Shown here piece by piece: positions 19,721 to 55,030 of a stretch of DNA of 64,000 bases. The DNA is taken from assembly GCA_049509515.1 (NCBI GenBank), contig JBEKZV010000011.1, positions 63,737 to 127,736 of the forward strand, read 5' to 3'. The number at the start of each line of letters is the position of its first letter. The stretch's first letter is position 1. The stretch comes from Thermoguttaceae bacterium. Its GTDB lineage: Bacteria > Planctomycetota > Planctomycetia > Pirellulales > Thermoguttaceae. The translations under genes and the position numbers were made by a program. The notes beneath the pieces were generated by a model. It was not told where the DNA came from. It saw nothing but the letters and a program-made list of their open reading frames with translations, and made no database searches.

Positions 19721-19721
19721 G

Positions 19722-36759: not shown

Positions 36760-37075
36760 GTGGGCTGAGTAGAGAATAAACCGACATTTCCCATTTACGG
36801 TGAGCCCGGAAGCCCTCCAGGCGCACACAACCTCTCATCTTATAACGGCGTGCCTCGCGTGCCCAGCCCCCGAGCGGCGTTTCTCCGCCTGGCCGCCATT
36901 CTCGTTCGCCTCGAAGCCGCATTCCATACCCCCGCCGGAGGAATCCCGGCAGTTCCTGGCGACTGGCGGGCGCCGCTTGCCTCGTCGGGGTATAATGGGG
37001 AGGGCCAGCCGATTCGCAGCGCTGCCCTCAATTCGTCCACGGTCCCCGTCCTTCCTGGCCCCAGGAGACCAGGCG

Positions 37076-39013
37076 ATGCACTTCCGCGTATGCCCGGTTG
37101 TGAGTATGGGGTTTTGCATGGGGGTGTGGGCGGCGGTTTTCGCCGCCGAGCCGCCGGCCGCGGTGCCTCAGACCTTCGACGCCGTTGTGCTGCCGTTCGT
37201 CAAGCGGTATTGCCTGAATTGCCATCGGGGGGCCGACGCCAGACGAGGTGTCCAATTGGACAAATACCGCACGGTCGCGGCCGTGTCGGAGGATCGGGCG
37301 ACGTGGAGCAGGGTGCGTAGCATGCTCCGCGCCCGCAAGATGCCGCCCGAGGACAGCCGCCGCCCGAAAGACGAGGAGTACGACGCGGTCGGCGCCTGGC
37401 TCGCAGCCACGCTCGGCCCGGCCGACCGGGCCGGCCCCCCCGATCCCGGCCGGGTGACGATCAGGCGCCTGAACCGTGCGGAATACTCGAACACCATCCG
37501 CGACCTGCTGGGCGTCGAGTTCAACGCAGCCGCCGATTTCCCCTCCGACGACGTGGGCTACGGGTTCGACAACATCGGCGACGTGCTCACGCTCCCGCCG
37601 CTGCTGCTGGAGAAGTACCTGGCTGCAGCCGAGCAAATCGCTGCGAAGGCAATTGCCGCGGACAAACCGGGCGACAAACTTGCGGACCACCCGGAATCGC
37701 ATCGCCGCATCTTTTTCGTCGCACCGGGGGGGAAATCGTCGCCCGAAGAGGCCGCCGAGCAGATTCTTCGCCGGCTCGCCACGCGGGCTTACCGCCGCCC
37801 GGTCAGCGACCAGGAACTCGCGCGGCTGCTGAAACTCGTCGCAGCCGCTCGTGCGCAAAACGACGGGTTCGAGGCGGGCATCCAACTGGCGCTCGAAGCG
37901 ATCCTCGTCTCGCCGCACTTCCTGTTCCGCGTGGAACTCGACCCGGAACCGAACGGCGTCGGGCGGATCCGCACGCTGAACGAGTACGAATTGGCGTCGC
38001 GGCTCTCCTATTTCCTCTGGAGCAGCATGCCCGACGACGAGTTGTTCGAGCTGGCGGCCCGCGGCAAGCTCCACGAGAACCTCGACCGCCAGGTGCGGCG
38101 GATGCTCGGCGATCCGAGGTCCAAGGCGCTCGTGGAGAACTTCGCCGGGCAGTGGCTGCAACTGCGGAACCTCGACCGGGCCGCGCCCGACAAATCGCAA
38201 TTCCCGGCCTTCGACGACGACTTGCGCCGCGCGATGCGAACCGAGTCCGAGATGTTCTTCGAGACCATCGTGCGCGAGGACCGCAGCGTGCTGGAGCTGC
38301 TCGACGCCGACTTCACGTTCGTCAACGCGCGGCTGGCGCGGCACTACGGGCTGGACGGCGTCGAGGGAGACCGGTTCCGCCGGGTATCGCTCCCGGCCGG
38401 CGGCGGCCAAGATGCCCTGCACGCCCGCGGCGGCGTGCTCACGCAGGCCGCGATCCTCACGGTGACGTCGAATCCCGCGCGGACCTCGCCCGTGAAACGC
38501 GGCAAGTGGGTGCTGGACAACATCCTCGGCACGCCGCCCCCCGATCCGCCGCCGAGTGTTCCCAGGTTGCAGGACGATGCCAAGGCGGTGGCCGCCGGCA
38601 CGGTGCGGCAGCGGATGGAGCAGCACCGCAAAGACCCCGACTGTGCCGTGTGCCACAAGGAAATGGACGCCTTGGGCTTCGCCCTGGAGAACTTCGACGC
38701 CGTGGGCGCCTGGCGGACCAAGGACGGCAACTTCCCCATCGACGCCGCCGCGCAGTTGCCCGACGGCCGGTCGTTCAACGGCCCGCGGGAGCTGAAGGCC
38801 GTGCTCCGCGGCAGCAAGGAACAGTTCGCCCGCTGCCTGACCGAGAAGCTGCTGACCTACGCCGTCGGCCGCGGCGTGGAGCCCTACGATAGGCCGGCAG
38901 TCGAGGGAATCGTCAGTGCCGCGAAGGCCGGCGACTACAAGTTCTCGACGTTGGTCCTGGGCATCGTGCACAGCGACCCCTTCCAGAAACGCCGCGGCAA
39001 GAACAAGGAGTGA
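37076..39013 (+). CDS. DUF1592/DUF1587/DUF1585/DUF1588/DUF1595 multidomain protein, typical of Planctomycetes
   Basis: Listed as an ORF from 36800. Probable start ATG 37076, preceded by aggaga, giving signal MHFRVCPVVSMGFCMGVWAAVFAAE. Contains CLNCH, CAVCH and the conserved blocks of this family. Confidence 0.85.
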   Translation: MHFRVCPVVSMGFCMGVWAAVFAAEPPAAVPQTFDAVVLPFVKRYCLNCHRGADARRGVQLDKYRTVAAVSEDRATWSRVRSMLRARKMPPEDSRRPKDEEYDAVGAWLAATLGPADRAGPPDPGRVTIRRLNRAEYSNTIRDLLGVEFNAAADFPSDDVGYGFDNIGDVLTLPPLLLEKYLAAAEQIAAKAIAADKPGDKLADHPESHRRIFFVAPGGKSSPEEAAEQILRRLATRAYRRPVSDQELARLLKLVAAARAQNDGFEAGIQLALEAILVSPHFLFRVELDPEPNGVGRIRTLNEYELASRLSYFLWSSMPDDELFELAARGKLHENLDRQVRRMLGDPRSKALVENFAGQWLQLRNLDRAAPDKSQFPAFDDDLRRAMRTESEMFFETIVREDRSVLELLDADFTFVNARLARHYGLDGVEGDRFRRVSLPAGGGQDALHARGGVLTQAAILTVTSNPARTSPVKRGKWVLDNILGTPPPDPPPSVPRLQDDAKAVAAGTVRQRMEQHRKDPDCAVCHKEMDALGFALENFDAVGAWRTKDGNFPIDAAAQLPDGRSFNGPRELKAVLRGSKEQFARCLTEKLLTYAVGRGVEPYDRPAVEGIVSAAKAGDYKFSTLVLGIVHSDPFQKRRGKNKE

Positions 39014-39016
39014 GCC

Positions 39017-40351
39017 ATGGGCAAGAACCGGCAGATTTCCCGGCGGACCGTCCTGCGGGGCGTCGGCACGGCGATCGCGTTGCCGTGGTTGGAGTCGATC
39101 ATGCCCCGGCTGTCGCAGGCGGCGGACGGCGGACCGCCGCGGCGGATGGCCTTCTTCTCGGTTCCCAACGGCATGCACATGCCCGACTGGACGCCGAAGG
39201 AAGAAGGCCCGCTCGATGTCCTGCCCCCGATCCTCGCGCCGCTGGAGCCGCTCAAGTCGAGCGTCACGGTCCTGAGCGGGCTGACGCTCGACGGCGGCCG
39301 GCCGCAACGCGACGGTCCCGGCGATCACGCCCGCTCGGCCGCCTCGTTCCTCACGGGGGCCCATCCGTACAAGACCAACGGCAAGGACATCCGCAACGGC
39401 GTTTCCGTGGATCAGGCGGCCGCGGAGAACATCGGCCGCCTGACCCGTTTCGCGTCGCTCGAACTGGGCTGCGAGCCCAGCGCGCAGGCGGGCAACTGCG
39501 ATTCGGGCTACAGTTGCGCCTATACGTCCAACATCTCCTGGCGCACTCCGACCTCGCCCCTCGGGAAAGAGGTCAACCCGCGGGCCGTGTTCGACCGCCT
39601 CTTCGGCCCGGCGGAGCCGACTGCGGAAGACCGCGCACGCCGCGGCCAACAAGAACGCCGGCGCATGAGCATTCTGGACTTCGCGGCCGAGGATGCCGCC
39701 GAGTTGCGTCGCAAACTCGACCGGAGCGACGGCCGCAAGCTCGACGAGTACCTGTACGCCGTGCGCGAGATCGAGCGCAGAGTGCAGGCGGCCGAAGGGG
39801 TGGCGGCCTCGGTGCCCGCGAGTGCGCGACCTGCCGGCACGCCCAAGGAATTCGCCGAACACGCGCGTCTGATGATGGACATGATCGTCCTGGCCTTTCG
39901 GACCGATTCCACGCGGATCGCCACCTGCATGTACCTGAACGAGGGCAGCAACCGCAGCTATCCCGAGATCGGCGTGCGGGCCGGCCACCACGAGTTGTCG
40001 CACCACGGCCGCGACCCGGCGAAGCAGGCACAGATCAGCAAGATCAACCGCCATCACCTCGGCCTGTTGGCCGAGTTCTTGCAGAAGCTCAACGCCGCGA
40101 AGGAAGGCGACGGCACCTTGTTACACGGCGCAATGATCCTGTACGGCAGCGGACTGAGCGACGGCGACCGCCACAATCACGACGACCTGCCGATCCTGCT
40201 GGCCGGCCGCGGCGGCGGAACGATCGCCGCCGGCCGCCACCTCCGTTATCCCAAGGAGACTCCGTTGACGAACCTTTACCTGGCGATGCTCGACCGTGTG
40301 GGCGCCGCGATGCCGAAGTTCGGCGACAGCACGGGCAAACTCGAGTTGTAA
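39017..40351 (+). CDS. DUF1552 protein with a TAT signal, the canonical partner of the DUF1592 gene
   Basis: 444 aa. Begins MGKNRQISRRTVLRGVGTAIALPWL. Starts 4 nt after the previous stop. Confidence 0.85.
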   Translation: MGKNRQISRRTVLRGVGTAIALPWLESIMPRLSQAADGGPPRRMAFFSVPNGMHMPDWTPKEEGPLDVLPPILAPLEPLKSSVTVLSGLTLDGGRPQRDGPGDHARSAASFLTGAHPYKTNGKDIRNGVSVDQAAAENIGRLTRFASLELGCEPSAQAGNCDSGYSCAYTSNISWRTPTSPLGKEVNPRAVFDRLFGPAEPTAEDRARRGQQERRRMSILDFAAEDAAELRRKLDRSDGRKLDEYLYAVREIERRVQAAEGVAASVPASARPAGTPKEFAEHARLMMDMIVLAFRTDSTRIATCMYLNEGSNRSYPEIGVRAGHHELSHHGRDPAKQAQISKINRHHLGLLAEFLQKLNAAKEGDGTLLHGAMILYGSGLSDGDRHNHDDLPILLAGRGGGTIAAGRHLRYPKETPLTNLYLAMLDRVGAAMPKFGDSTGKLEL

Positions 40352-41007
40352 CCGCTGTCATCGTCCGGCAAGGCTTGAAAACCAAGATTAGCGAGTATCG
40401 GCCGCACGTCCCTACCGGGAATCTCGTACTCGTTTCCTACGGGCGTCGGCAACGAGTTGTGGCGGGCGGGCGGCGAGTTGCTCTGCCACCGGCTCCCGGA
40501 CCGTGCCGGCGATTCCCGGCTTCTTCGACCTCAAGAGCCTTACCGGGCGGCTTGTCCACATGCCGGCCTTTGAAGACGAGGCGGCTGCCCACCCAGCTTG
40601 CTATGTAGCACACGGCTTATCTTCCAAGTAATCATGCCGGCGAAACCAGAATAGGCGTTACATTCGGCAGTTTATGGCAAGACAGTTGGCGACAAACGTG
40701 ACGTTCTTGTCGAAAAATCTGACCCTTTCGGGTCAATCTTGGCGACTAAACGAATAAAATGCTACAAGCCGAGCAAGACACATAACGGTTGCAAACCCTA
40801 CCCAATGATTCCCCGACAAGTCCCGACCGGCCCCAGTCGAAAGACGTGACTGTTGCAGTAACGCCTTTAAGGCGAGGCCGGCCGGAAACACCCCCCAAGC
40901 GATCCCGCCAGTAGAAACGAAGGGAAACAGCAGATCGATCTCGGTGGAGGATCCCGCCGAGAGCATCCATGTCCACCCGACGGGGTGGCCCACAAGGAGG
41001 TGGCACT

Positions 41008-42516
41008 GTGCGCACGATCAGGCACACCAGAGGCGAGTTTCGGGGCTGTCGCGCGGGTCTAGTCGTGCTGGGGGTTTTGTGCCTCGGGCTCGGCGCGTGC
41101 CGGTCGTCCAGCAACGACTGCCCGCCGCGGCGGATGGAACCCCGATTGGACCCCGGTTGGCCCAGGGCCAATAACTTCTTCACGCAGGTCTCGTACCAGG
41201 AGGTCCGCGCGGCGCTGCCGAAGATCGCGGGGGCGGAGTACGTCAACGACGCCGAGATCTGCGCCACATGCCACGAGACGTACACGAAGTCGTTTGCCGA
41301 CAACGTACACCGCCGCGACAACTGCGAGTCGTGCCACGGCCCGGCCAGCCGCCACGTCGAGACCCGCGGCAAGGAGCCGGGGCTGATCTTCAGCTTCAAG
41401 CAGGGGGATCCCTACGTGCGGGCGGAGGCCTGCCTGCGGTGTCATGAGGAGAACCAGTGCACCCAGGGGGCCCAGTGGCGGACCTCGAAGCACGCGCACT
41501 GCGGCGTGACTTGCGTCGATTGCCACCGCGGCCACTACAACGTGCCTTACGGCACCCCGGCCACCACCGCGCCCGGCGAGGCCCGCGGTCCGCTGGGCGA
41601 GATAACCCAGTTCGCCTCGTTGCGGCTTGCCGCCGAGCCTGCCCCGCCCAAGACGGAGCTGCCTTCGCTCCGCGGGTCGTCGCGGCACCTCGGCGCGGTG
41701 GCGCCGAACGTCTGCTACCGTTGCCACTGCGACATGCAGGACATGCAGCAGATCGCGGGACCGCACCAGGTTTGCGGGCCCAACGGATTCAATTGCACCA
41801 CGTGCCATGATCCGCACGGCGTGCTGAAGGAGTCCTCCAGGAAGGACCTCTGTCTGTGCTGCCACGCGCAGCATGCGCCCACGATGGCCTGGCACTCCTC
41901 GATCCACGCCAATAACGGAGTGGCGTGTACCGACTGCCACAATCCGCACCCGCGGGCCTGCGTCCCGCGGTTCGTCGAGATCGACCACTACCAGGTGAAG
42001 CGGCCCAAGCGGATGCCGATGTCCGTCCAGGAGCCCGAGGCGTGCTACAAATGCCATGCGAAGATGTACGGCCTGAACGCGATGCCTTCGCACCATCCGA
42101 TCAAGGAAGGGAAGATGGTCTGCTCGGACTGCCACGACCCGCACGGCCAGTACCTCGGCAACCTCAAGGACGAAACGATCAACCTGGTGTGCTACCGCTG
42201 CCATGCCGAGAAGCAAGGGCCGTTCGCCTACGAGCACCCGCCGGTGACCGAGAACTGCTGCATCTGCCACGAGCCGCACGGGGCCGTGGCCAAGGACTTG
42301 TTGCGGCAGCCGGTGACCTTCCTGTGCATGCGGTGCCACCCCGGCCACGCCAACAACTCGCATGCCAACATCCTCGTCGGTACGAAAAGCGGCGCCGTTA
42401 CCACCAGCGCCGCGCAATACCAGAAGGGCTTCTACACCGACTGCACCGCCTGCCACGCCGACATCCACGGCAGCAACAGCGCGTCGGTCAGCGGCCACGG
42501 AACCTTAACGCGTTAA
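41008..42516 (+). CDS. Multiheme c-type cytochrome lipoprotein (~14 CxxCH motifs)
   Basis: Listed as an ORF from ATG 40969. GTG at 41008 has a perfect AGGAGG 7 nt upstream and gives a lipoprotein signal ...AGLVVLGVLCLGLGAC. Heme motifs: CATCH, CESCH, CLRCH, CVDCH, CYRCH, CTTCH, CLCCH, CTDCH, CYKCH, CSDCH, CYRCH, CICH, CMRCH, CTACH. Confidence 0.85.
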   Translation: MRTIRHTRGEFRGCRAGLVVLGVLCLGLGACRSSSNDCPPRRMEPRLDPGWPRANNFFTQVSYQEVRAALPKIAGAEYVNDAEICATCHETYTKSFADNVHRRDNCESCHGPASRHVETRGKEPGLIFSFKQGDPYVRAEACLRCHEENQCTQGAQWRTSKHAHCGVTCVDCHRGHYNVPYGTPATTAPGEARGPLGEITQFASLRLAAEPAPPKTELPSLRGSSRHLGAVAPNVCYRCHCDMQDMQQIAGPHQVCGPNGFNCTTCHDPHGVLKESSRKDLCLCCHAQHAPTMAWHSSIHANNGVACTDCHNPHPRACVPRFVEIDHYQVKRPKRMPMSVQEPEACYKCHAKMYGLNAMPSHHPIKEGKMVCSDCHDPHGQYLGNLKDETINLVCYRCHAEKQGPFAYEHPPVTENCCICHEPHGAVAKDLLRQPVTFLCMRCHPGHANNSHANILVGTKSGAVTTSAAQYQKGFYTDCTACHADIHGSNSASVSGHGTLTR

Positions 42517-42589
42517 CCGAGGTTTTACCGCCCGCGGGCGCGCCGACCCGCGGGCTTCTTGATCACCGTTCGCGGCAGGGGGGCTGCTC

Positions 42590-44911
42590 ATGTTTCGGAA
42601 ATACGTGCTCTGCGCCTTCGGGGCGATCACCTGTGCCACGGCTCTGGCCGTGGCGGCCCGCGCCCAGGACGTTCAGGACCCTTACCTGGCCGGGCCGAGC
42701 TGCGGCGTCGTGTCGGACCTGGATGTCCGCATGGGCTACTGGGCGTCGCACACCACGGGCAGCCCGGTCAAGGTCGGCGAGTACCAGGACTTGGCGTCCT
42801 CCCTGTTCTACGACGTGGACATGCTCCGCAGCAACGGTACCCGCACGTTGGACTTCACCGCCAACGGCACCGACCCCGACGCCAACAACGTGTACCTGCA
42901 CTACTTCGGCCCGGGGCTGGCGGGCCAGGGGCTGGAGGCCAACGTCAACTACCAGAGCTTCATACACAACCTCGGCCACGACAATCTGGGCCAGTTCACC
43001 GACTCGGGCGGAACCAACAACAACACCGACAACGGCGCCACCGGCGCCAACATCCGCGGCCAGCAGTTCCTCAGGCAGGACTTCAACCCCGGCGAGGACT
43101 ACGCCATTCGCGTGCAGGAGTTCAAGGCGAACTTCAAGGCCGAGTTGACCCCGGACCTCCGGATCCGGTTGGACGTGTGGGGCATCGACAAGGAGGGGAC
43201 CCGCCAGGTCAACTCGATGCAGGAGTGCTACCCGCACACGTACGCCACCATCGACCCCACCACCACCAGCCTGCCGGCGCAGAGTGCCGGCGGAACCAAC
43301 CACTGCCACATCCTCAGCCAGTCGCAGCACATCGATTGGCAAACCACCGAGGTCAAGCCGGTCGTCGAATGGAACCTCGGCCCGGTCGTCATCGAGTATT
43401 CCCGGCCGATGCGGACCTTCACCCAGGACGATCAGACCGTCTACCGCTTCTATGACTTCGAAGGCGTGACGCCGGGTTCCAAGCCGTACAGCCTCGTCCC
43501 CGACAACACCACGCAGATCGACCAGTTCAAGCTGAATGTGCTGGTGAACGAGGACAACCGCTTCTACGGATTCTTCTACACCGGCAACACCCGCAGCGAG
43601 GGAGAAGCGGTGCTGCCGAGCGGGGAACTGGCCGACGAGGTCAACAACCGCCGCATGACTGGCGCCGACATCCGCTGGACCAACACGACCATCGACAACG
43701 TGACGATCACCCCCTATGCCCGCTACGTGAAGGAAACCAACCTGTTCAGCGAAGAGGCGGATACCACCTTCCCCATCAACTACGAGCGCTCGCAAGCGGG
43801 CGTGCGAACCCTCTGGCGGCCTTTCGGCGGCGGTTTCGGGCTGGGAGGGCTGGCCATCAAGGCCGAGTACGAGTACGGCGATCTGCACCGCGCCAACCTG
43901 GACTTCCCGCAAGACGGCATCGGCCCCGCGGGTGGCCCCGGCCCCAGCATCGCCGCCGGTGAGATCGACGAAGAGCACACCCGTAGCAACATCTTCTCCA
44001 TCGGTCCTACGGTGCGGTGGTCGCCGCAGTTCGACACGTACCTCAAGTACAAGTATTACGATACCCAGGACGCGTTGTACGCCGTGGCTTACCACAACCC
44101 CAGCAGCCGCGACAGCCCCCCCTACTCCTACGCCGGCCTGTCGACCAACAGCGCCCTGCCCGAGTACGACAACATCATCGAGCTCGGCGGCACCTGGCTC
44201 CCCAACGACCGCTTCATGCTCAACGGCTGGATCGGCTTCGACATGCAGAGCCAGAGCGAAGGCCAGTTGGTGATCAACAATACCTTCGCGCCCAGCGCGT
44301 CGCGGACGGAAGCCCTGACTTCCAAGACCGACAACTACCCGTGCGGCCTGAACGGCTCCTACCGGGCCGGCGACAAGTGGACGCTCAACTTCGGCGCCGC
44401 CTATTTCACCAACTGGATCGATCAAGACGTGACCTTCAGCCCCGGCTCGGATCACGGCTTCGGCGGCACGGTCACTCCGCCTTTCCCCGCCGGACCCAAC
44501 CAGTACGGGGCGCTGCTGAACCGCCTCGCCTATGGGGGCCGGGCCGGGGTGTTCAACCTGGGCGCCACCTATCGCCTCAGCCCCAGGCTGCGATTCCAAG
44601 CCCAAGGCGAGTATGTCCACGGCATCGACTCCGCGTACCAACTCTCCGGCGATCCCAACTTCCCGCAGACCAACGCGGCGACCGCGAGCATCCCCGGCAT
44701 CTTCCGCGACGACGTGGTCATTACGCGGGTCTCCGCGGGGATCGATTACCTGGTCTCGAAGCGGTGTACCGCTTACTTCCGCTACGTGCTGTTCGACTAC
44801 CAGGACAGCGCAGACAAGACGCAGTTGGCCGCCTCCACACTGCCGGTCGACGGCCTGCCGCTCTCCGGCACGTCCAACCTGTTCCTCACCGGACTGAACG
44901 CGACGTTCTAG
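42590..44911 (+). CDS. Large outer-membrane beta-barrel protein (773 aa), candidate porin partner of the upstream multiheme cytochrome
   Basis: Signal peptide MFRKYVLCAFGAITCATALAVAARAQD. Aromatic-rich body with alternating hydrophobic residues and many Y/F/W-G-N motifs. C-terminus ...LFLTGLNATF (terminal Phe). No CxxCH motifs. Starts 73 nt after the cytochrome gene. Confidence 0.7.
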   Translation: MFRKYVLCAFGAITCATALAVAARAQDVQDPYLAGPSCGVVSDLDVRMGYWASHTTGSPVKVGEYQDLASSLFYDVDMLRSNGTRTLDFTANGTDPDANNVYLHYFGPGLAGQGLEANVNYQSFIHNLGHDNLGQFTDSGGTNNNTDNGATGANIRGQQFLRQDFNPGEDYAIRVQEFKANFKAELTPDLRIRLDVWGIDKEGTRQVNSMQECYPHTYATIDPTTTSLPAQSAGGTNHCHILSQSQHIDWQTTEVKPVVEWNLGPVVIEYSRPMRTFTQDDQTVYRFYDFEGVTPGSKPYSLVPDNTTQIDQFKLNVLVNEDNRFYGFFYTGNTRSEGEAVLPSGELADEVNNRRMTGADIRWTNTTIDNVTITPYARYVKETNLFSEEADTTFPINYERSQAGVRTLWRPFGGGFGLGGLAIKAEYEYGDLHRANLDFPQDGIGPAGGPGPSIAAGEIDEEHTRSNIFSIGPTVRWSPQFDTYLKYKYYDTQDALYAVAYHNPSSRDSPPYSYAGLSTNSALPEYDNIIELGGTWLPNDRFMLNGWIGFDMQSQSEGQLVINNTFAPSASRTEALTSKTDNYPCGLNGSYRAGDKWTLNFGAAYFTNWIDQDVTFSPGSDHGFGGTVTPPFPAGPNQYGALLNRLAYGGRAGVFNLGATYRLSPRLRFQAQGEYVHGIDSAYQLSGDPNFPQTNAATASIPGIFRDDVVITRVSAGIDYLVSKRCTAYFRYVLFDYQDSADKTQLAASTLPVDGLPLSGTSNLFLTGLNATF

Positions 44912-46383
44912 GGCGTGATCCCGATTGCTTGCGACGGCTTCTGCGCCGAAGTTCGCTCGGCGGGCAGTGGCGGGAGGTCGACCTTCGGCTCGGCCAGGCC
45001 CAGCTCGCGGCAGAGGGCGGAGATGCGATCGGCCACGGCGTGGTTGAGCGTCGTGGCATAGTGCATGTTGTGCACGTCGTTGCCCGTGCGCAGAAAATCC
45101 AGGTCGTGCTCCACGTTCTCCAGCTCGGTGCGGAGCGCGGCCGCGCGGCCGGCGGCGAGATGGGCCGCGGGGACCGCCGCGCGGATCCGCGCCAGGGCGG
45201 AGGCCAGCTCGGGCAGCGACGCGCGGAGCTGGGCGTGGTAGACCTGGAACTGCTTCACGGCGGCCGCGTCGTGGCACATCGAGCAAACGGCCGGCGAGCC
45301 TCGCACGAGCACCGTCCCGGTGGACGAGACCTCTTTCTGCAGATGGCAGGTGCGGCATTCGAGGCGGACGACCGCCATGCCGCCGGACTGGGCGGCGATG
45401 GTCCGGCCGCCGCTTCCCCGGAGCATCTGCACCTGCTCCCCGTGGTGGTTCGGGTGGCAGGATTGGCAATTCGCCGCGGCGTGTTCCAGCTTGCGGCGGT
45501 CCAGCGAGTGCTCGATGGGATTGTGGCAGTGCAGGCAGTCGATCTTGTGCTCGGTGACGTGCTTGGCGTGCATGAACAGCGGGTCGTGGATGCGTTCCAG
45601 GTCGCCCGGGCGGTTGTGGCAGGAGAGGCAGCGCTCGGGGGCCACCTGGCCGTCGCCGCGGATCACGTCGCCGTGGCAGTTGGCGCAGTCGACGCCCTTC
45701 TCGTACGCCAGGTCGTGGGTGAAGGTGACGCCGCCGCCCAGGTCGAACTTCGTGTCGGGGATCTGGTGGCAGTGGGTGCAGGCGCCGAGGCCCTCGTTGA
45801 GCGGCTCGTCCTTGAAGTGGCACAGGAAGCAGGTCGAGGTGGTCACGGTCATGTGGCTGCCCTGGACGATCTGGCTGTGGCAGCTCGTACAGCGGAGCTG
45901 CTTGCCGCGGCGGGTTTCCTTGAGGTGCGGCGTGTGATCGAAGGGCACGCCGTGGAAATCGACCCGCCCGACCAGGAGCCGCGTCTCGTGGCACCCCGAC
46001 CGCAGGCAGCTTGCGTCGGGGATTTCCGCGGTGGGGCGGGTGCCCGCGCTCTGCGTCACGTACTTGGCCAGTTGCACCAGGCCGAGCATCTTGCCGCGGA
46101 GTTTCCCGCCGAGGCCCGGCGGGAAATGGCACTCGATGCAACTCACGTCCTTGTGCGTCGAGGCCTGCCACGACTTGTAGTAGGGCTCCATGATGTGGCA
46201 GCTATTGCAGAACTCAGGGCGCGAGGTGTACCAGCCGGCGCAGGCCACCAGCAGCACCACCAACAGCGCCAGCGAGCCGGCCAGCGCCGCTCCGCGGGCA
46301 GCCAGGCGGCGGAGCGTCCGCCAGGCCGGGCTGGATCGGGCGGCGGCCAGGAACCGGACCAACCGTTGCCATGTTCCGCGCAC
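44908..46383 (-). CDS. Membrane-anchored multiheme c-type cytochrome (~12 hemes, NapC/NirT/NrfH-like N-terminus; ImcH-like architecture)
   Basis: GTG start at 46383. N-terminal TM anchor AALAGSLALLVVLLVACAGWY, then CNSCH, CIECH, CLRSGCH, CTSCH, CFLCH, CTHCH, CANCH, CLSCH, CLHCH, CQSCH, CRTCH, CSMCH. Its stop overlaps the barrel gene's stop at ctag 44908-44911. The start lies 1 nt from the stop of the upstream cytochrome gene. Confidence 0.8.
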   Translation of the reverse strand: MRGTWQRLVRFLAAARSSPAWRTLRRLAARGAALAGSLALLVVLLVACAGWYTSRPEFCNSCHIMEPYYKSWQASTHKDVSCIECHFPPGLGGKLRGKMLGLVQLAKYVTQSAGTRPTAEIPDASCLRSGCHETRLLVGRVDFHGVPFDHTPHLKETRRGKQLRCTSCHSQIVQGSHMTVTTSTCFLCHFKDEPLNEGLGACTHCHQIPDTKFDLGGGVTFTHDLAYEKGVDCANCHGDVIRGDGQVAPERCLSCHNRPGDLERIHDPLFMHAKHVTEHKIDCLHCHNPIEHSLDRRKLEHAAANCQSCHPNHHGEQVQMLRGSGGRTIAAQSGGMAVVRLECRTCHLQKEVSSTGTVLVRGSPAVCSMCHDAAAVKQFQVYHAQLRASLPELASALARIRAAVPAAHLAAGRAAALRTELENVEHDLDFLRTGNDVHNMHYATTLNHAVADRISALCRELGLAEPKVDLPPLPAERTSAQKPSQAIGITP

Positions 46384-46384: not shown

Positions 46385-48733
46385 TCAGCCCCCCAACCCG
46401 GCGTAGATCATGCCCGCCAACAGCGCCAGCCCCACGCCCAGGGCCCCGTAGCCCAGGGCCGTCACGAGCCACAGCGTCGCGCGGCCCGGGGCGGTCGTCC
46501 GCAGCCCCTCCAATTGCCCCTCGCGGCGGAGCCGCTCGAAGAGCACCGGGCGCGTGTCCTGGAACTCCTCTTCGCTCACCAGGCCGGTCAGTACCGAGCG
46601 GTCCACGGGGAAGACGTCCGGGCGGAGGTGCGTGTTGAAGAAGTGTACGGCGAACACGAAACCGGTGGCCAGCAGGGCCTGCGTGGAGTGGATCACCTGG
46701 GCCACGTTCACGCCGATGCCCGGCAGAAAACGGCAGAAGAAGTTGGGGAACCACAGCACCAGCCCGGTCGAGCCGATGATCACGATGTCGGCGGCCGCGC
46801 CCCAGAAATCGAACTTCTCCCAGTAACCCCAGCGATCGAAGGTCGGCTTGGGCCCCAGGCCGACGAACCACCGCAGCATGGCACAGACATCTTTGACGTC
46901 TTGGAGATTGGGGATGGGAGAATCCGGGCCGAACACCAGCGCGGTCCTCCGCGTGCCGCGGCGGCGGCCCTGCACGTAGAGGCACACCAGCCGCACCAGG
47001 TACGCCGTGAAACAGCCGAAAGTGACCAGGGCGAAGACCCGGTGCCAGAAACTGGTCGAGGCGAAGCCGCCCATGGCCTGTGCCACTCGCTGGGCCCACT
47101 CCATGGAGCTGTACTTCATCGGCAGGCCGGTCAAGGCGAGCCCCAGGAAGGCCAGCAGCATGACGGCGTGTCCGATGCGGTGGAAGCGGGGAAAACGGAC
47201 GTAGGCCGGCCCCAACGGCTGGAGGCGCCGCGGGCGGCCGCCGTGGAACACGTCCACCAAGCCCCGCACGAACCACAGGACCGAGTGCACCCCGAACAGC
47301 CCGAACGTCGTCAACAACACCGTCAGCAGGACCACGTAGACGCCATGCACGATCGGGCTGCGCTGGGGATCGGTATAGTCCGTGTGCGGATCGAAGGCCA
47401 GGAAATTGCCCGAGGCGTTGGCATGGCACTGCCGGCAGGTCTCGGCGCGATTTTCCGCCGACAGCCGCGAGCCGGCCTCGGAGGCCGGCAGGATGTCGTG
47501 GGCCCCGTGGCAGTCCGAGCACTTGGCGGCCGGGGCGTACCCCAACTCCGTCAGGTGGCCGTGGGCGCTCAGGGCGTACTGGCTCTCGAGGTCGGCGTGA
47601 CAGCTTCCGCAGCGGGTTGGCGACTGCAGCCGGAACGCCGCAGAAGTCGGCTGTGCCAAATCGTGCCCCACGTGGCAGGAGGTGCAAGTAGGTCTCTGGT
47701 TAGCCAGTTCGCCCGGCGCGTGCCGGGCACCCGGGGCTTCCCGGGCGGCCGGGCCGCCCGGCGCGCCGCCCCGGCCGTGTACGCTGGCCGCCAGCCACTC
47801 TTCGATAAACCGGTGGCACTTGCCGCAGGTCGCAGCGACCCGCGTGCTGCTGAGCGTGGACCGCTTATCGGGAGCGCGGTAGACCCCGTGGGCCCCGTGG
47901 CAGTCCGCGCAGGCCGGCACCACCAACAGGCCCATCTTGTGCAGCCCCCGCCCGTGCACGCTCTGCATGTACGTTTCGAGGTGCTCCGCATGGCACTCGC
48001 CGCAGACCTTCAATTGGTGGTCGAGGAACACGGGCGACGCCGGGTCGCGGACCCCCAGCAATTGATGTGCGACCGGGCCGTGGCACTGGTCGCACGCCAG
48101 CGGGGTGCCCCGGCCGCGGTCGTCCTTGGCCCCCGCCTTGTCATGCACCCCCTTGACCAGGTCGATCGCCTGCTCTTTGTGACAGGCCGCGCAGAACTTC
48201 TTCACCTCGGCCGGCTTGGAGCGGAAGCCGTCCTCGGCGGCGTGCGGCGTCTGCTTGATGTCCTCCGCCCGGACATTCCCGCCGTGGCAGTCGTGGCAGT
48301 TCACGCCGGCCAGCCAATGCACGTCGCGTTTCAGCCCTTCGCGGGAGATGAACAGCCGCTTCTTGTCGCCCTCCCACAGGTCCGGCTCGCCGTGGCAGAC
48401 GATGCAGTTATTCTTGTCCGGGGGGACGTGGGAGCCTTTTGGCGGCGGCAGGACGATCGCTGCGGGGGCTGCGGCGGCCGGGGCGGTTACGGCGGGAGCC
48501 GGAGTGGCGACCGGAGCCGAGACGGCGCCGGGAGCCGAAGTGGCGATGGGCGCCGGGGGAGCATGCGGGCCGCCCGGTTGGAGAACCGGGGTGGATGCCG
48601 GCGACGGCTGGGCATCGGCCTCGGCCGCCTGGGCCACATAGCCGGGGACCGCTGCCTGCCAGGCAGGCACGGCGCTACCCGCTACCGCCAGGAGGATCGC
48701 TGCCGGCAGCAACCACGCGAAAAACCGTTTCAT
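46385..48733 (-). CDS. Fusion of an ~11-heme c-type cytochrome domain with a multi-TM b-type cytochrome domain (CbcL-like architecture)
   Basis: Listed as an ORF to 48805. Start at ATG 48733 (MKRFFAWLLPAAILLAVAGSAVPA, signal). Heme motifs: CIVCH, CHDCH, CAACH, CDQCH, CGECH, CADCH, CGKCH, CTSCH, CGSCH, CSDCH, CRQCH. The C-terminal ~300 aa has at least 6 TM helices with conserved His residues (RFHRIGHAVM, VIHSTQALL, AVHFFNTHLRP), similar to HydC/FdnI-type diheme cytochrome b. Confidence 0.85.
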   Translation of the reverse strand: MKRFFAWLLPAAILLAVAGSAVPAWQAAVPGYVAQAAEADAQPSPASTPVLQPGGPHAPPAPIATSAPGAVSAPVATPAPAVTAPAAAAPAAIVLPPPKGSHVPPDKNNCIVCHGEPDLWEGDKKRLFISREGLKRDVHWLAGVNCHDCHGGNVRAEDIKQTPHAAEDGFRSKPAEVKKFCAACHKEQAIDLVKGVHDKAGAKDDRGRGTPLACDQCHGPVAHQLLGVRDPASPVFLDHQLKVCGECHAEHLETYMQSVHGRGLHKMGLLVVPACADCHGAHGVYRAPDKRSTLSSTRVAATCGKCHRFIEEWLAASVHGRGGAPGGPAAREAPGARHAPGELANQRPTCTSCHVGHDLAQPTSAAFRLQSPTRCGSCHADLESQYALSAHGHLTELGYAPAAKCSDCHGAHDILPASEAGSRLSAENRAETCRQCHANASGNFLAFDPHTDYTDPQRSPIVHGVYVVLLTVLLTTFGLFGVHSVLWFVRGLVDVFHGGRPRRLQPLGPAYVRFPRFHRIGHAVMLLAFLGLALTGLPMKYSSMEWAQRVAQAMGGFASTSFWHRVFALVTFGCFTAYLVRLVCLYVQGRRRGTRRTALVFGPDSPIPNLQDVKDVCAMLRWFVGLGPKPTFDRWGYWEKFDFWGAAADIVIIGSTGLVLWFPNFFCRFLPGIGVNVAQVIHSTQALLATGFVFAVHFFNTHLRPDVFPVDRSVLTGLVSEEEFQDTRPVLFERLRREGQLEGLRTTAPGRATLWLVTALGYGALGVGLALLAGMIYAGLGG

Positions 48734-48744
48734 GCGTCGCTGGC

Positions 48745-49281
48745 CTACTGCTTGTCGTAAGCCGGGTGCGGCTTGTGCTGCTGGTCGATGTGGCAGCGGA
48801 CGCAAACGTTCTGCGGCGCGATCTTATAGATCGATCCCCGCACTTCCTTGTCCTGGTCCGGCGAGAGGACTTTCACGTTTTCGTATTTCTTGGCGATGAC
48901 GGCGTGCTGGCTGCCCGGGCCGTGGCAGGCCTCGCACGTGGTGCCGGCGAGGTTGGGGGTCGAGGTCGCATCCTTGAAACCGGTGGCGGCCCCGTAGCCC
49001 GTGGAGTGGCAAATCAGGCACTCGGCGGTGCCGCGATACTTGGCCGGCACGCTCTCGAATGCCTCTTTGGCGTGCTTGGTCTTCTTCCATGCCATGTAGG
49101 CCTTCAGGTGGCAGGCGGCGCACTGCTTGGTTCCCGTGTAGGTCTGGTCCGCCGGGGGATGGACCTCCGTGACCGGTTCCGCCGGCGGCTGCGACCGCGC
49201 CGGCAGCCCCCACAGCATCCAAATTGCAGCCAACGTCCCTGCCCCAAGCAGTGCCAACCAATCACACCTCGGCCTGACCAT
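48745..49281 (-). CDS. Periplasmic tetraheme c-type cytochrome
   Basis: 178 aa with a signal peptide. Heme motifs CAACH, CLICH, CEACH, CVRCH. It is the first gene of the minus-strand cytochrome operon; 11 nt separate it from the next gene. Confidence 0.8.
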   Translation of the reverse strand: MVRPRCDWLALLGAGTLAAIWMLWGLPARSQPPAEPVTEVHPPADQTYTGTKQCAACHLKAYMAWKKTKHAKEAFESVPAKYRGTAECLICHSTGYGAATGFKDATSTPNLAGTTCEACHGPGSQHAVIAKKYENVKVLSPDQDKEVRGSIYKIAPQNVCVRCHIDQQHKPHPAYDKQ

Positions 49282-49712: not shown

Positions 49713-50177
49713 ATGACCGAATCCGTTGCCCGGCGCAATTGGTTGCTGCGGTGCCTGGAGGCCGGGATCGCCATGACCGTGGCAGCGATCTTCTACCCGG
49801 TGGCCCGGTTCCTTCGGCCCAGGACGGCGACACGGTCGGGCGGACTGGAGATCGTCGCTCCATACCGCATGGATCAGCTCAAGCCGGACGCCGAAGGTCG
49901 CTGGCCGCCACCGTTCGACTTCGGCGGCAAGCCGTGCCTGCTGATCCTGGTGGACGGCCAACCCAGGGCGCTGAATGCCGTGTGTACGCACCTGGACTGC
50001 ACGGTCGAGTATCGCCCCACCCCGGGCGATATCTTCTGCAACTGCCACAACGGCCTGTACGACCTGAACGGCCGCAACATTTCCGGCCCGCCGCCGCGGC
50101 CGCTGGAACTCTACAAGGCCGTCAAGGGCAAGGGGAATCCCGGCCAGGAGGAGATCCTTGTCTCGCGCATCGTCTGA
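49713..50177 (+). CDS. Rieske [2Fe-2S] subunit of a cytochrome bc-type complex
   Basis: TAT-type N-terminus [19 protein letters not shown]. Cluster ligands CTHLDC...CNCHNGLYD (CxH...CxxH). Confidence 0.9.
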
Positions 50178-51531
50178 AATCGCGTCGGGGAACCGGGGCT
50201 GGCTGGGGCGCCTCGGGGAGTTCTTCTACCAGCGGTTGGGCCTGGACAGCGCCGCGGCCCTGGCCGCCAAGAAACACGTCCCCGTCCACCGCACCACTTT
50301 CTTCTATTTTCTCGGCGGGATGGCGCTATTCTTGTTCGGCGTCCAGGTGGCCACCGGCATCCTGCTCTCGCTCTACTACAAGCCTTCGCCCGACCAGGCC
50401 TTCGAGAGCGTCCGCGCGATCATGACCGAAGTGGACTTCGGCTGGCTCTTCCGCTCGATCCACTCCTGGAGCGCCAACCTGCTGATCGGGATCCTGTTTC
50501 TGCACCTGTTGACGACGTACATGATGCGGGCGTACCGGCGGCCCCGTGAACTCACCTGGATGACCGGCGTCGTCCTGCTGGGCGTCTTCCTGGCCTTCGG
50601 CTTCAGCGGCTACCTGCTGCCGTGGAACCAGCTTTCCTTCTTCGCCACCCGGGTGGGCACGGCCATCGCCGGCGCGGTGCCCGGCATCGGCAAGTACGCC
50701 TTGCTCATGGCCCGGGGGGGAGAAGAAATCACCGGCGACACCTTGGCCCGCTTCTATGCCCTGCACGTCGTGATCCTGCCGCTGGCGACAATCGGCCTTA
50801 TCGGGCTGCACCTGTTCCTGGTGCAGAAGCACGAGATCAGCATCCCGGAGGGAGCGATCCGCGAGCACGGCGGTGTGGACAAGGTTCCCCACATGCCCTT
50901 CGTGCCGCATTTCCTGCTCCACGACATGGTCGGCTGGTATCTGGCGCTGGGAATCCTGGCCGCCCTGGCCGCCCTGTTCCCGTGGGAGCTCGGGCAGAAG
51001 GCCGACCCCTTCGGCTCCGCCCCGGCGGGAATCAAGCCGGAGTGGTACTTCCTGTTCATGTTCCAGGCGCTCAAGCAACTCCCCGCCAACCTCTGGGGGA
51101 TCGAATGGCTGGAGGGGGACATGGTCGGGGTGCTGTTCTTCGGGTTCTGCGGCGCGGTGGTATTCTTAGTGCCATACCTGGACGCGGACGTCACGCGGGA
51201 GCGATCCCGCCGCCTTCTGACCTTGTTGACGGCCCTGCTCGCGGCATTCCTTGCGGCGGTGGTCTTCTGGTTCCTGTGCAATGCGGCCGGCGCGCTCGTG
51301 GTGTACCGGTTCACCGATCCGTCGCAAGCGCGAGACCTCGACCGGGAAGCATCGGTGGCCTGGTGGCTGCAATACGTGGCCTACCCGGCGTGTTGCGGCG
51401 CGGCGATGATCCTCATCGCCCTGGCGACGTTCGGACGCCCCCGCCGGCAGCCGCGGTTGAACGTCAACCTCATGGCCGCCTTGGCCGTGTTGTTCTTCAT
51501 CGTCATGACCGCCTGGGGGCTGGCCAAATGA
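50158..51531 (+). CDS. Cytochrome b subunit of a bc/b6f-type complex (fused b6 plus subunit-IV-like, 457 aa)
   Basis: TTG start at 50158 with AGGAGGAG upstream; it overlaps the Rieske gene by 20 nt. Cytochrome-b signatures: [22 protein letters not shown], His ligands in [14 protein letters not shown] and [12 protein letters not shown], and [13 protein letters not shown]. The stop overlaps the next gene's start (ATGA). Confidence 0.9.
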
Positions 51532-52901
51532 GAACGATCCGAGCGTTGTCCCTGGCGATCATGCTTGCGGCGGCGTCCGCAGCCGCGGCGGCGGAGCCCA
51601 AGGTCCAGGCCGGCCAGGCCCCGCCGGGACCGAACAACTGCATCCTCTGCCACAGTAACAAGGACCTGTGGGAGGGCGAGCAAGCGAAATTGCTCGTCAC
51701 CGAGGCCGATCTGGCCGGCGACATCCATTGGCAGAGCGGACTGCGCTGCCAGGACTGCCACGGCGGCAACCCCCGGGCGGAGGACATCAAGCAGGCGCCA
51801 CACGCCGCCGAGGACGGGTTCCGCAAGGTTGGGTCGCCCAAAGACGTTCCCGAGTTCTGCGGGAAGTGCCATGCCGACATCGAGTACATGCGCCGCTACC
51901 GCCCCTCGCCGCGGACCGACCAGCTTGCCGAATACTGGACCAGTGACCACGGCCGGCAGCTCAAGACCGCCGGCGATTTGAAGGTGGCCACGTGCATCTC
52001 CTGCCACGACCGGCCGCACGGGTCCGGCGCCGAGCGGCACCCGCACGGGATACGGCCCGTCAGCGACCCGGCCTCCTTCGTCTATCGCACCCGCGTGGCC
52101 AAGACCTGCGCCACCTGCCACGCGGACAAGAAGCTGATGGCCGGCCGGCAGTATCACGGCCAGCCCCTGCCGTGCAACCAGTACGAGCAGTGGAAGGAGA
52201 GCGTCCACGGCAAGGCCATGATGGAGAAAGGCGACCTCAGCGCTCCGACCTGCAACAACTGCCACGGGAACCACGGGGCGGTCCCCCCGCAGGTCGACAG
52301 CGTGGCCAACGCCTGCGGCGCCTGCCACGGCAAAGTGGCCAAGCTGTTTGCCGAGACCCGCATGAGGCACAAGTTCGAGTTGGTGGGCCTGCCGGGATGC
52401 GCGACCTGCCACGGCAGCCACGAGATCCGCCAACCCACCGATGCGATGCTGGGCATGCAGACCGGGGCCGTCTGCGCCCGCTGCCACGAGCAAGGCAAGT
52501 TCGGGGCCACGCTGGCCGGGGCGGCGACCGCCAGGAAGCTCCGCGCCGGCCTCGAACGGCTCAAGCGTGGCATCGGCAAGGCGCAGGACACCCTCAGCGA
52601 GGCGGAGCAACTGGGCATGGAGGTCAGTCAGCCGCAATTCACCCTCCGCAAGGCCTCCGACGCCCTGACCAACGCCCGCTCCCTGATCCACGCCTTCCAG
52701 CCCGACCCGGTCGAAAAGGCCCTGGCTACCGGCCAAGAAGTCGTCGAGGAGGTCCAGGAGCAGGGCGACCATGCCCTCCAGGAGCACACCGCGCGGCGGA
52801 TCTGGCTGGCGGCCTCCCTGGCGCCGATCCTGCTGGTGATTCTCTTGCTGCTGCTCTACATCCGCAGCCTGCCGGCGCCGACGGACGGCGCGGACAGTTG
52901 A
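51528..52901 (+). CDS. Nonaheme c-type cytochrome with a C-terminal TM anchor (the c-type subunit of the bc complex)
   Basis: True start ATG 51528 ([22 protein letters not shown], signal), inside the spurious 759-aa ORF 50622..52901. Heme motifs CILCH, CQDCH, CGKCH, CISCH, CATCH, CNNCH, CGACH, CATCH, CARCH. C-terminal anchor [21 protein letters not shown]. The N-terminal ~90 aa are paralogous to the N-terminus of the 46385..48733 protein. Confidence 0.85.
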
Positions 52902-53038: not shown

Positions 53039-55030
53039 ATGACAACTCTCGGCCAGCTCTGCTTGTTGATCGCGCTGGTGGGCTCGGGGTATGCGGCCTT
53101 TGCGTGCATCGTGGGGTGGCGGGGCGGGCACGGCGCGGTCCTGAAAGGCGGCTTGGCGGCGGCATGGGCCGCGCTGGCCGGGCTGTGCGGAGCGGCGGTG
53201 ATCCTTGCCCATGCACTGTTGATCAAGGACTTCCGTTTCGACTACGTCGCCCGCTACTCCGACGCCCTCCTGCCGGTACATTACTCGCTGTCGGCATTCT
53301 GGGTCGGCCAGGAAGGATCGCTCTTGTTGTGGGCCTGGTTGGTCGCCCTGGTGGCGATCAGTTACCGCTTCACCGCGGGCAAACAAGCCGACGGGCTGCG
53401 CGAGCTGGCCTTCGGCGTGCTGATGGCCTACGCCTGTTTCTTGGTGGCGATCATGGTGTTTGCCGCGGATCCGATGCGGCCCGGCCTGACCGCCCGGACG
53501 AGCGGTGAGGGACTGTCGCCCCTCTTGCAGCATCCGGCGATGCTGGTTCACCCGCCGATCGTCTTCCTCGGTTACTCGCTGTGGGGCGTCCCGTTTGCGC
53601 TGGCCGTGGCCTGCCTGGTCAGCGGCCGGTTCGAAGCCGCGTGGCTTCGCCAGGCGCGGGCTTGGGCCCTGGTGGCCTGGGCAGTGCTGGGCGGCGGCAT
53701 CCTGTGGGGTGCCGAGTGGGCTTATGAAGAACTCGGCTGGGGCGGCTACTGGAGCTGGGACCCCGTCGAAAACGGATCGCTCATGCCGTGGCTGGCAGGA
53801 ACCGCCCTGATCCACGGCCTGCTGGCCTGGCAGCATTCCGGCGGCCTGAAGAAGACCACCCTGGGGTTGGCGGTGGCGACGTTCGCGCTGTGCAACTTCG
53901 CCGCCTTCCTCACCCGCAGCGGCATCTTCAGCAGCCTGCACGCCTTCAGCCGGTCGCCGATCGGCTGGATGTTCCTGGCGTTGATGTTGTTTCTGGTGAT
54001 CGGAGGGGCCGCGCTGCTCTTGGCCCGCAGGAGCCGGCTGGCGGCCGAGCGGCCCATCGCCGGCCTCTGGAGCCGCGAGGCCCTTGTGCGGCTGGGAGTA
54101 CTGGCGCTGGTGCTCCTGGCTGCCGTCACTCTGGCGGGCACCTTGGTCGTGCCCGTGGCCAGTATCCTCTGCGGTCCGCGAATCGTCCTGGGCGCCGGTT
54201 TCTACAATTGCGCCTTGATCCCCGCGGGATTCGTGCTCTTGGCGGCCATGGTGGCGACGCCGTTGTGCCGGTGGCGGGGTTCTCCGACGGCCGCGGGGAA
54301 GCAGTGGCTCACGGCCGCCGCCGGCGCGGGGGGCATCGCTGCAGCGACGGCCTTCCTGCGCGGTGCGCGGCATCCGGTCACCTTGGCCGTGGCCGGGCTG
54401 GCCGCCTCCGCCGCAGTCGCGACGGTGGCCGCCTGGATCCTCGACGCGCGCCGGCTCTCGTCGGCGCGGCCCTGGCTCCGACCGCTCCGCGCACTCGCCC
54501 TCCGCCGCAGGCAGTACGCCGCCCTGGGCATCCACCTGGGCTTCGTCGCGCTGGCGATCGGCGTGACGGGCTCCTCGCTGGCCGTGCGATCTCACGACGC
54601 CACCCTGGCGCAGGGCGACGTGCTCCACTGGGCCGGCTACTCGATCCGCTGCCTTGCCGTGCGAGCGCGCGACCTGCCGGACCGCTCGATCCTGGCCGCG
54701 GAACTTGAGGTGTCCGAAGGCGGGGCGACGCCCTACCAAGTCACGCCCAGCAGGGCCTGGCACCGGCCGCTGAACCAGTGGACCACGCGCGTCGCCATCC
54801 GCTCCCGCTGGGACGGCGACTTCTACGCGATACTGCGGGGCGAGGTCGAGCCGGGCAAGGCCGATTTGACGTTCCAGGACAACCCCATGATGCGATGGCT
54901 GTGGGCCTCGGGGTGGATCGCGGCCGCCGGCGCCGCGATCGGACTGGGGCCAGCGAGACGGCGCGGCCGGCGCCTGCCGGAAGCACGGCCGGCACTCCTG
55001 CCCCACGCCGCGCGTTCGAACCGCCATTGA
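53039..55030 (+). CDS. ccmF: Cytochrome c-type biogenesis heme lyase, CcmF/NrfE family
   Basis: 663 aa and polytopic. WWD motif WAYEELGWGGYWSWDPVENGSLMPWLAGTALIHG, with conserved His residues in the flanking TM segments. Confidence 0.85.
   Translation: MTTLGQLCLLIALVGSGYAAFACIVGWRGGHGAVLKGGLAAAWAALAGLCGAAVILAHALLIKDFRFDYVARYSDALLPVHYSLSAFWVGQEGSLLLWAWLVALVAISYRFTAGKQADGLRELAFGVLMAYACFLVAIMVFAADPMRPGLTARTSGEGLSPLLQHPAMLVHPPIVFLGYSLWGVPFALAVACLVSGRFEAAWLRQARAWALVAWAVLGGGILWGAEWAYEELGWGGYWSWDPVENGSLMPWLAGTALIHGLLAWQHSGGLKKTTLGLAVATFALCNFAAFLTRSGIFSSLHAFSRSPIGWMFLALMLFLVIGGAALLLARRSRLAAERPIAGLWSREALVRLGVLALVLLAAVTLAGTLVVPVASILCGPRIVLGAGFYNCALIPAGFVLLAAMVATPLCRWRGSPTAAGKQWLTAAAGAGGIAAATAFLRGARHPVTLAVAGLAASAAVATVAAWILDARRLSSARPWLRPLRALALRRRQYAALGIHLGFVALAIGVTGSSLAVRSHDATLAQGDVLHWAGYSIRCLAVRARDLPDRSILAAELEVSEGGATPYQVTPSRAWHRPLNQWTTRVAIRSRWDGDFYAILRGEVEPGKADLTFQDNPMMRWLWASGWIAAAGAAIGLGPARRRGRRLPEARPALLPHAARSNRH

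Follow-up and report, generated by a model that had tools for sequence, protein, structure and literature searches.

Does a pair of adjacent genes in a Thermoguttaceae bacterium encode a conduit that carries electrons across the outer membrane? The question is raised by a stretch of 64,000 nucleotides (assembly GCA_049509515.1, contig JBEKZV010000011.1, positions 63,737 to 127,736; hereafter the window), in which a sequence-only reading had noticed a 14-haem lipoprotein cytochrome followed, after a 73-nt gap, by a 773-aa outer-membrane beta-barrel, and had likened the two to the MtrAB, PioAB, MtoAB and Geobacter Pcc systems. In this study, we conclude with a probability of roughly 0.8 that the gene pair is an MtrAB-type trans-outer-membrane electron conduit, because the cytochrome is homologous to MtrA and DmsE, the barrel is modelled with the MtrB fold, the genes of the pair lie side by side almost without exception, both products carry export signals, and quinol-linked cytochromes are encoded at the same place. 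The features of the pair are as follows.

41008..42516, forward strand: 14-haem c-type cytochrome of 502 aa, a relative of the MtrA/DmsE family with four extra N-terminal haems (from the CxxCH count, hidden Markov models and a PDB match)
40994..41000, forward strand: Shine-Dalgarno sequence AAGGAGG, 7 nt 5' of the cytochrome GTG start at 41008
41008..41100, forward strand: lipoprotein signal peptide with a positively charged n-region and a 15-aa hydrophobic core, ending in the lipobox L-G-A-C (Cys31)
42530..42555, forward strand: GC-rich hairpin in the 73-nt gap, nine G-C pairs and then TTCTTG (a weak T-tract), -24.7 kcal/mol
42590..44911, forward strand: outer-membrane beta-barrel of 773 aa with a predicted MtrB fold, sister to the GSU2204 family
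43226..43309, forward strand: Cys213 ... Cys239-His240 of the barrel (CX25CH), flanking a disordered loop (from family conservation)

Both open reading frames (ORFs) are as the sequence-only reading had described them, with the 14 CxxCH motifs and the LGAC lipobox of the cytochrome, the gap (42517-42589) and the export signals of the barrel all in place. In the cytochrome frame (40969/41008..42516, forward strand), exactly 14 CxxCH motifs were counted, and the same motif count found no CxxxCH, CxxxxCH or CxxCK. All 14 motifs, together with 14 further, distal His, are invariant in 37-40 homologues of 48-85% identity, and the number is therefore a conserved property and not a chance outcome in a Cys/His-rich frame. 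The unpaired Cys151 (…EENQC…) and Met338 (502-aa numbering) were also invariant and three further His nearly so; judging from the alignment, these residues are potential spare ligands or contacts.

On sequence grounds, the GTG at 41008 is the correct start, giving a product of 502 aa, because AAGGAGG lies 7 nt upstream and recurs as a conserved in-frame 'QGG' just 5' of the start in many homologous loci. The N-terminus then reads MRTIRHTRGEFRGCRAGLVVLGVLCLGLGA followed by C, with the lipobox LGAC. This Cys is kept in 40/40 aligned homologues, preceded by A, S or G, with 37 of the 40 fitting the lipobox pattern, and the tether from it to the first haem motif has a conserved length of 52-60 residues. 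The public gene calls, of 456 aa (NCBI) and 460 aa (JGI), begin 3' of the lipoprotein signal peptide; on account of the Shine-Dalgarno-supported start and the conserved lipobox, we take both calls to be truncated, with loss of the export signal.

The cytochrome was placed near MtrA by two approaches. Against TIGR03508 (DmsE family decahaem) it scored 231.7 bits, above the curated cut-off of 192.2, with 14 CxxCH motifs instead of the ten CXXCH of that decahaem family; against NF041028 (GSU2203 decahaem family) it scored 279.4 bits with an expectation value (E) of 3.6e-83, below the cut-off of 325. In a PDB sequence search, the nearest solved protein was 6r2q_A, the MtrA of MtrCAB (E 2.2e-36; runner-up E 2.6e-4), with residues 354-506 aligning with MtrA 178-327; this C-terminal half is the one that makes hydrogen bonds with MtrB and points to the cell exterior in the crystal structure (PMC7198977). 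The JGI label on members of the cytochrome cluster and on dozens of relatives is 'DmsE family decaheme c-type cytochrome'. By its sequence, the cytochrome reads as MtrA plus four N-terminal haems plus a lipid anchor. MtrA itself is not known to be a lipoprotein.

For the barrel, the signal peptide ends in …AVAARA before QD and the C-terminus is …LNATF, the family consensus likewise ending in Phe. MtrB was the top structural match of the barrel model by a wide margin, with 566/649 residues covered at an identity of 12%. TonB-dependent receptors, ushers, LptD and ordinary porins gave far lower structural scores and partial alignments only; clear homology to a nutrient porin, usher or autotransporter, named by the sequence-only reading as the result that would overturn it, was therefore not what emerged. 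The model has about 26 strands, is superposable on MtrB and shares with it a pattern of short first strands and long later ones (PMC7198977). The barrel also matched NF041027 ('GSU2204 family CXXCH-containing (seleno)protein') with 133.4 bits (E 1.1e-38), below the cut-off of 350 and well aligned in the N-terminal third only, and this family was matched by 61/61 barrel relatives (best E 6e-54). Because the scores of both proteins fall under the curated cut-offs, the pair is taken, by sequence comparison, as sister to and not part of NF041028 and NF041027, so that the GSU2203 and GSU2204 families are homologous sister families of the two proteins. The GSU2204 family has been described as a CXXCH-containing MtrB/PioB-family barrel (2026 review, PMC13188914). 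No selenocysteine codon is needed in the barrel here, as its ORF is uninterrupted to the C-terminal Phe. Pfam MtrB_PioB (PF11854) was reached by 5/61 barrel relatives (best 1.1e-8), more relatives carry PF11854 in precomputed annotation, and for one the NCBI name is MtrB/PioB family. A database entry from a Thermoguttaceae metagenome-assembled genome (MAG; Planctomycetota), 'hypothetical protein ABSG86_06245', has the same sequence as the barrel.

The linkage of the two genes was surveyed by tblastn with one genome per species, giving 55 loci. In 52/55 loci, the barrel gene was immediately preceded by a cytochrome homologue on its own strand, and this pairing persists across families in which barrel identity is only ~30%. 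Where the upstream sequence was intact, 37/48 loci had exactly 14 CxxCH. Some barrels (L045, L049, L029, L034) are partnered by cytochromes of 19, 15 or 12 CxxCH, so that the family contains wires of different length. Nearly all loci (54/55) are labelled Planctomycetota, from Thermoguttaceae, Pirellulaceae, Lacipirellulaceae, Pirellulales, Planctomycetia and 'Candidatus (Ca.) Anammoximicrobium'. The exception, L054 (CAVTMP010000007.1), has a barrel and frame-shifted cytochrome pieces and is labelled 'Solirubrobacterales', an actinobacterial order without an outer membrane; it is probably a misbinned or mislabelled MAG. A profile search of 1.84 billion cluster representatives gave 769 representative family members at E ≤ 1e-3, and neither this exhaustive search nor a second homologue search from a CxxCH-type member found members beyond the Planctomycetota type. 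Several related MAGs bear peat-bog (SPRUCE) isolate names, another came from an iron- and manganese-rich tunnel biofilm, and locus L015 belongs to MAG OFTM39, reconstructed in an earlier study (PMC10732223).

Several observations weigh against the conduit. The window barrel has no Pfam match at E < 0.1, and a profile of 61 barrels searched against PDB sequences misses MtrB, which is found by structure comparison only; the membership of the barrel in the MtrB family rests on fold, NCBIfam homology below the cut-off, and synteny. The AlphaFold2 model of the cytochrome alone, built haem-free from a 40-sequence alignment, had a predicted local distance difference test score (pLDDT) of 41 and was unusable for fold search. 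MtrA has 10 haems and is not known to be a lipoprotein, so the MtrAB template may not hold for the topology here; the relatives are, without exception, from uncultured MAGs; and the sequence by itself fixes neither the substrate nor which way the electrons flow. The missing Pfam match, together with weak matches of a few barrel relatives to the generic porin models OMP_b-brl and Porin_4, could suggest an ordinary barrel, used as a solute porin or secretion channel, with the cytochrome merely a neighbour. We regard this as highly improbable, given the coverage of MtrB by the model, the far lower and partial scores of other barrel classes, the homology to the GSU2204 family and an adjacency that is retained at ~30% barrel identity.

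The barrel has one further, unexpected feature. The sequence-only reading had stated that the barrel has no haem motifs, which is correct for CxxCH (none was counted in the 773 aa), but it had overlooked the Cys213 ... Cys239-His240 motif. Cys239 and His240 are invariant, Cys213 is kept in at least 90% of members, and a Cys-Xn-Cys-His motif with n = 2-49 is present in 223/223 full-length family members, each with exactly one upstream partner Cys. The spacing among these 223 is CxxCH in 18, CX4-6CH in 11 and CX8-49CH in 194, with no partner-less member. Between P0279 (CX18CH) and P0282, which are 80% identical, the distal Cys is lost and a Cys at -3 is gained; as the sequences stand, this difference is a compensatory relocation that preserves two Cys and the His. 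In the barrel model, the two longest strands (190-215 and 237-262) carry Cys213 and Cys239 at their far ends, and residues 217-234 form a loop that is disordered (pLDDT below 50) and, by strand parity in the model, is probably extracellular loop 4, between strands 7 and 8.

Two readings of this motif were considered. The barrel might itself be a cytochrome, with Cys-Xn-Cys-His at the tip of the strand-7/strand-8 hairpin binding haem covalently as an entry or exit relay of the 14-haem wire at the surface; we propose this tentatively and at slightly worse than even odds. It is favoured by the invariant His and by the P0279/P0282 switch. The candidate alternative, a cross-strand disulfide between Cys213 and Cys239 with the His in another role, is favoured by the cross-strand geometry in the haem-free model. 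Haem attachment at CX15CH in MccA is a precedent for an atypical c-haem site. We also counted the name of the sister NCBIfam family, 'CXXCH-containing', as a precedent for haem binding. If haem is indeed bound, the barrel would be an MtrB-type porin with a haem of its own, held by an expandable non-canonical motif, which would replace an MtrC-type surface cytochrome.

Hairpins comparable to that at 42530-42555 were present in only some homologous loci, with no consistent conservation; the element is possibly an attenuator or mRNA stabiliser and may tune the ratio of the two products. A sigma-70-like promoter was not found 5' of the gene pair, a negative that is uninformative for Planctomycetes.

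Immediately 3' of the pair, the window contains a respiratory island, by which the conduit could be connected to the quinone pool.

44908..46383, reverse strand: cytochrome of 491 aa, membrane-anchored at a NapC/NirT/NrfH-type N-terminus, with 11 CxxCH and one CxxxxCH; its gene converges on that of the barrel
46385..48805, reverse strand: fusion of an 11-haem cytochrome c and a dihaem cytochrome b membrane domain, CbcL/MtrH/MtoC-like (from Pfam Ni_hydr_CYTB and multihaem domains; start uncertain)
48745..49281, reverse strand: small tetrahaem cytochrome, c554-like
49713..52901, forward strand: bc-type complex of a Rieske protein (49713-50177), cytochrome b (50158-51531) and a C-terminally anchored 9-haem cytochrome (51528-52901)
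53039..55030, forward strand: CcmF (System I haem lyase)

We infer that the 44908-46383 cytochrome is the link to the quinol pool and that the tetrahaem cytochrome at 48745-49281 is a periplasmic carrier. Within 7 kb of the barrel, the NapC-like 12-haem protein was present in 18/55 loci, the CbcL-like fusion in 16/55, the tetrahaem cytochrome in 15/55, and Rieske plus cytochrome b in 13-14/55. The 9-haem and 11-haem proteins share clearly paralogous N-termini (…NNCI[VL]CH…DLWEG…CHGGN…). No MtrC-like surface cytochrome is encoded near the pair, and the island holds no further lipobox cytochrome.

The CcmF at 53039-55030 was considered as a dedicated lyase for the atypical barrel motif, as is the case for MccA and NrfA. 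This was rejected, as elsewhere CcmF stands within a complete ccmE-F-A-B-C operon, and the CcmF of the window is general maturation machinery. In several Pirellulaceae loci, such a complete operon lies directly 3' of the barrel gene (L031 9467-14330; L026 4957-8495), and System I haem maturation is therefore genomically tied to the module. A conserved 328-aa ORF of no assigned function follows CcmF (region 53039-56027).

The more distant surroundings are of other kinds. On the 5' side of the pair, positions 36800-40351 encode Planctomycete-specific PSCyt/PSD proteins (DUF1585/1587/1588/1592/1595) and DUF1552, which are not conserved beside the module elsewhere. At 3497-23009, there are two complete resistance-nodulation-division (RND) efflux sets (HlyD-type adaptor, AcrB-type pump, TolC-like outer-membrane efflux protein), together with a phosphate-selective porin and a hybrid histidine kinase. 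Remaining genes of the window code for BamB-like proteins, a P-type ATPase and unrelated enzymes. From the TolC-like proteins, the phosphate porin and the BamB-like proteins, it follows that a conventional outer-membrane protein repertoire is present. No Rfam families or tRNAs were found in the window.

Considering the above results, a plausible model of the conduit can be proposed. As no MtrC-like gene is found nearby, the pair would form a two-component module like MtoAB, PioAB and the clusters of Kuenenia and Anaeromyxobacter. By analogy with MtrAB, the barrel most likely sheathes the 14-haem cytochrome. In the MtrCAB crystal structure, a 26-strand sheath surrounds MtrA, whose N-terminus is periplasmic and C-terminus external, and the 80-A haem chain passes a membrane of roughly 40 A (PMC7198977). 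On this template, the C-terminal ten-haem part would lie inside the barrel with the last haem at the cell surface, and the four extra N-terminal haems would extend the wire on the periplasmic side, the chain being roughly 110 A long by simple proportion. The N-terminal lipid anchor and the tether of ~55 residues would hold that end of the cytochrome at a membrane. Exchange with the quinone pool would pass through the NapC/NrfH-like 12-haem protein, the CbcL-like fusion, the Rieske-cytochrome b complex and the tetrahaem carrier, and at the other end electrons would pass directly between the exposed terminal haem and the substrate. The position of cbcL, mtrH or mtoC beside mtrAB or mtoAB is a known arrangement, and the architecture of CbcL has been described (PMC6295460).

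The flow of electrons in such a module could be outward, to respire Fe(III), humic or particulate organic acceptors outside the cell, or inward. We consider outward flow somewhat more likely, since a NapC/NrfH-like quinol dehydrogenase is adjacent and GSU2203/GSU2204 of Geobacter, an Fe(III) reducer, are induced with iron oxides (PMC4070692); neither point is decisive. Inward flow as in MtoAB/PioAB, with the bc complex and the quinone pool receiving electrons from Fe(II), reduced humics or minerals outside the cell, appears rather unlikely but has several points in its favour. The module consists of two genes without an MtrC-like surface cytochrome, as in MtoAB/PioAB (PMC6831781); the Rieske-cytochrome b complex and the CbcL/MtoC-type protein adjoin the pair; CbcL/MtrH/MtoC homologues are known in reducers and oxidisers alike (PMC6295460); and a potential for iron oxidation has been reported for Planctomycetota MAGs (PMC10732223). 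Against it, cyc2, carbon-fixation genes, a terminal oxidase and nitrate reductase were not seen in the 64-kb window, which again is not decisive. A third use would be that of Shewanella DmsEF, in which the conduit feeds a dedicated surface-exposed terminal reductase, there the dimethyl sulphoxide (DMSO) reductase. The best-scoring curated family of the cytochrome bears the DmsE name, and several terminal modules are known that use the MtrAB scaffold; however, no molybdopterin oxidoreductase or other candidate surface reductase lies beside the pair in the window, and the conserved neighbours in the 55-locus survey are cytochromes and ccm genes only, which makes this use very unlikely here.

The conduit proposed here is best understood by comparison with known systems. 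Compared with Shewanella MtrAB (PDB 6R2Q, PMC7198977), the cytochrome has 14 haems in place of 10 and a conserved lipobox that is not known from MtrA, no MtrC-like gene is nearby, and the barrel has an invariant Cys-Xn-Cys-His, an identity of 12% to MtrB and a sequence profile by which MtrB is missed. The closest curated families for both proteins (NF041028, NF041027) are those of GSU2203 (OmcK) and GSU2204 of Geobacter sulfurreducens. By description, the CXXCH of the GSU2204 family (PMC13188914) parallels the Cys...Cys-His found here. GSU2203 is decahaem whereas the cytochrome here has 14 haems, the barrel motif is CX25CH instead of CXXCH, and there is no selenocysteine.

MtoAB and PioAB, which are Fe(II)-oxidising conduits, are likewise two genes without a surface cytochrome and belong to the same MtrA/MtrB superfamilies, and the barrel is similar in size to PioB. 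In PioA, however, the N-terminal extension is haem-free and cleaved (PMC6831781), while the extension here carries four conserved haems and a lipid anchor. PioB has about 87 kDa and apo-PioA about 54 kDa (PMC6831781); by this measure the expectation that the pair would be unusually large was borne out for the haem count but not for the sizes, which are ordinary. Shi et al. (2014) described two-gene porin-cytochrome (pcc) clusters in Ca. Kuenenia stuttgartiensis and Anaeromyxobacter, with a porin-like protein and a 12-14-haem cytochrome, and argued that the extra haems compensate for the absent surface cytochrome (PMC4245776). These clusters also have no outer-membrane cytochrome gene, but their cytochromes are of 338-344 aa, compared with 502 aa here, a comparison made by description; they were found as relatives of Geobacter Pcc, and homology between Geobacter Pcc and Mtr is not known. 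Geobacter Pcc itself (OmaB-OmbB-OmcB) has three components, with 8 haems in its periplasmic cytochrome, a porin-like protein, and 12 haems in a lipoprotein cytochrome at the outer surface, compared with one 14-haem cytochrome gene with the barrel here. The likeness to Pcc that had been drawn at the outset thus extends to the layout, whereas the homology found is to Mtr and GSU2203/GSU2204. In Cyc2, a monohaem domain is fused to the N-terminus of a small barrel of 16 strands, and there is no partner cytochrome. If Cys-Xn-Cys-His binds haem, the barrel here would also be an outer-membrane barrel with its own covalent haem, with the differences that the motif lies between strands 7 and 8, the strands number ~26 and the partner has 14 haems; no homology to Cyc2 is claimed.

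The sequence-only reading had further held that, as far as it knew, extracellular electron-transfer conduits of this type were undescribed in Planctomycetes. This is contradicted by three reports, the Kuenenia cluster of Shi et al. (PMC4245776), the porin-cytochrome complex up-regulated in anammox extracellular electron transfer (Shaw et al., 2020; PMC7188810), and the finding by Suarez et al. (2023; PMC10732223) of PCC genes in MAGs of non-anammox Planctomycetota. In addition, 'novel' multihaem clusters have been reported from lake Planctomycetota (10.1101/2022.03.26.485925) and CbcL/MtoC homologues within Planctomycetota (PMC6295460), while a 2026 peat preprint characterised analogous clusters in Acidobacteriota and Verrucomicrobiota only (10.64898/2026.05.27.727921). 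We found no literature description of the family as a conserved lipoprotein 14-haem relative of MtrA, of its fixed Pirellulales-type pairing, or of the porin Cys-Xn-Cys-His. The module is a variant of the known MtrAB-type system and not a new kind, and public annotation already points to DmsE/MtrA; the likeness to MtrAB, PioAB and MtoAB proposed from the sequence has held up, with TIGR03508 above its cut-off, MtrA as the nearest solved protein, MtrB as the best fold match, and adjacency in 52/55 loci.

If the conduit reading is right, MtrAB-type conduits would be extended to a large, mostly uncultured part of Planctomycetota, comprising Thermoguttaceae, Pirellulaceae, Lacipirellulaceae and others. 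The pair could then serve as a concrete gene marker that can be tested, and would point to extracellular electron transfer in a phylum whose members are usually regarded as aerobic polysaccharide degraders. Furthermore, the lipid-anchored 14-haem relative of MtrA, the quinol-linked set of partners and, above all, the Cys-Xn-Cys-His of the porin would bear on how two-component conduits may work without a surface cytochrome.

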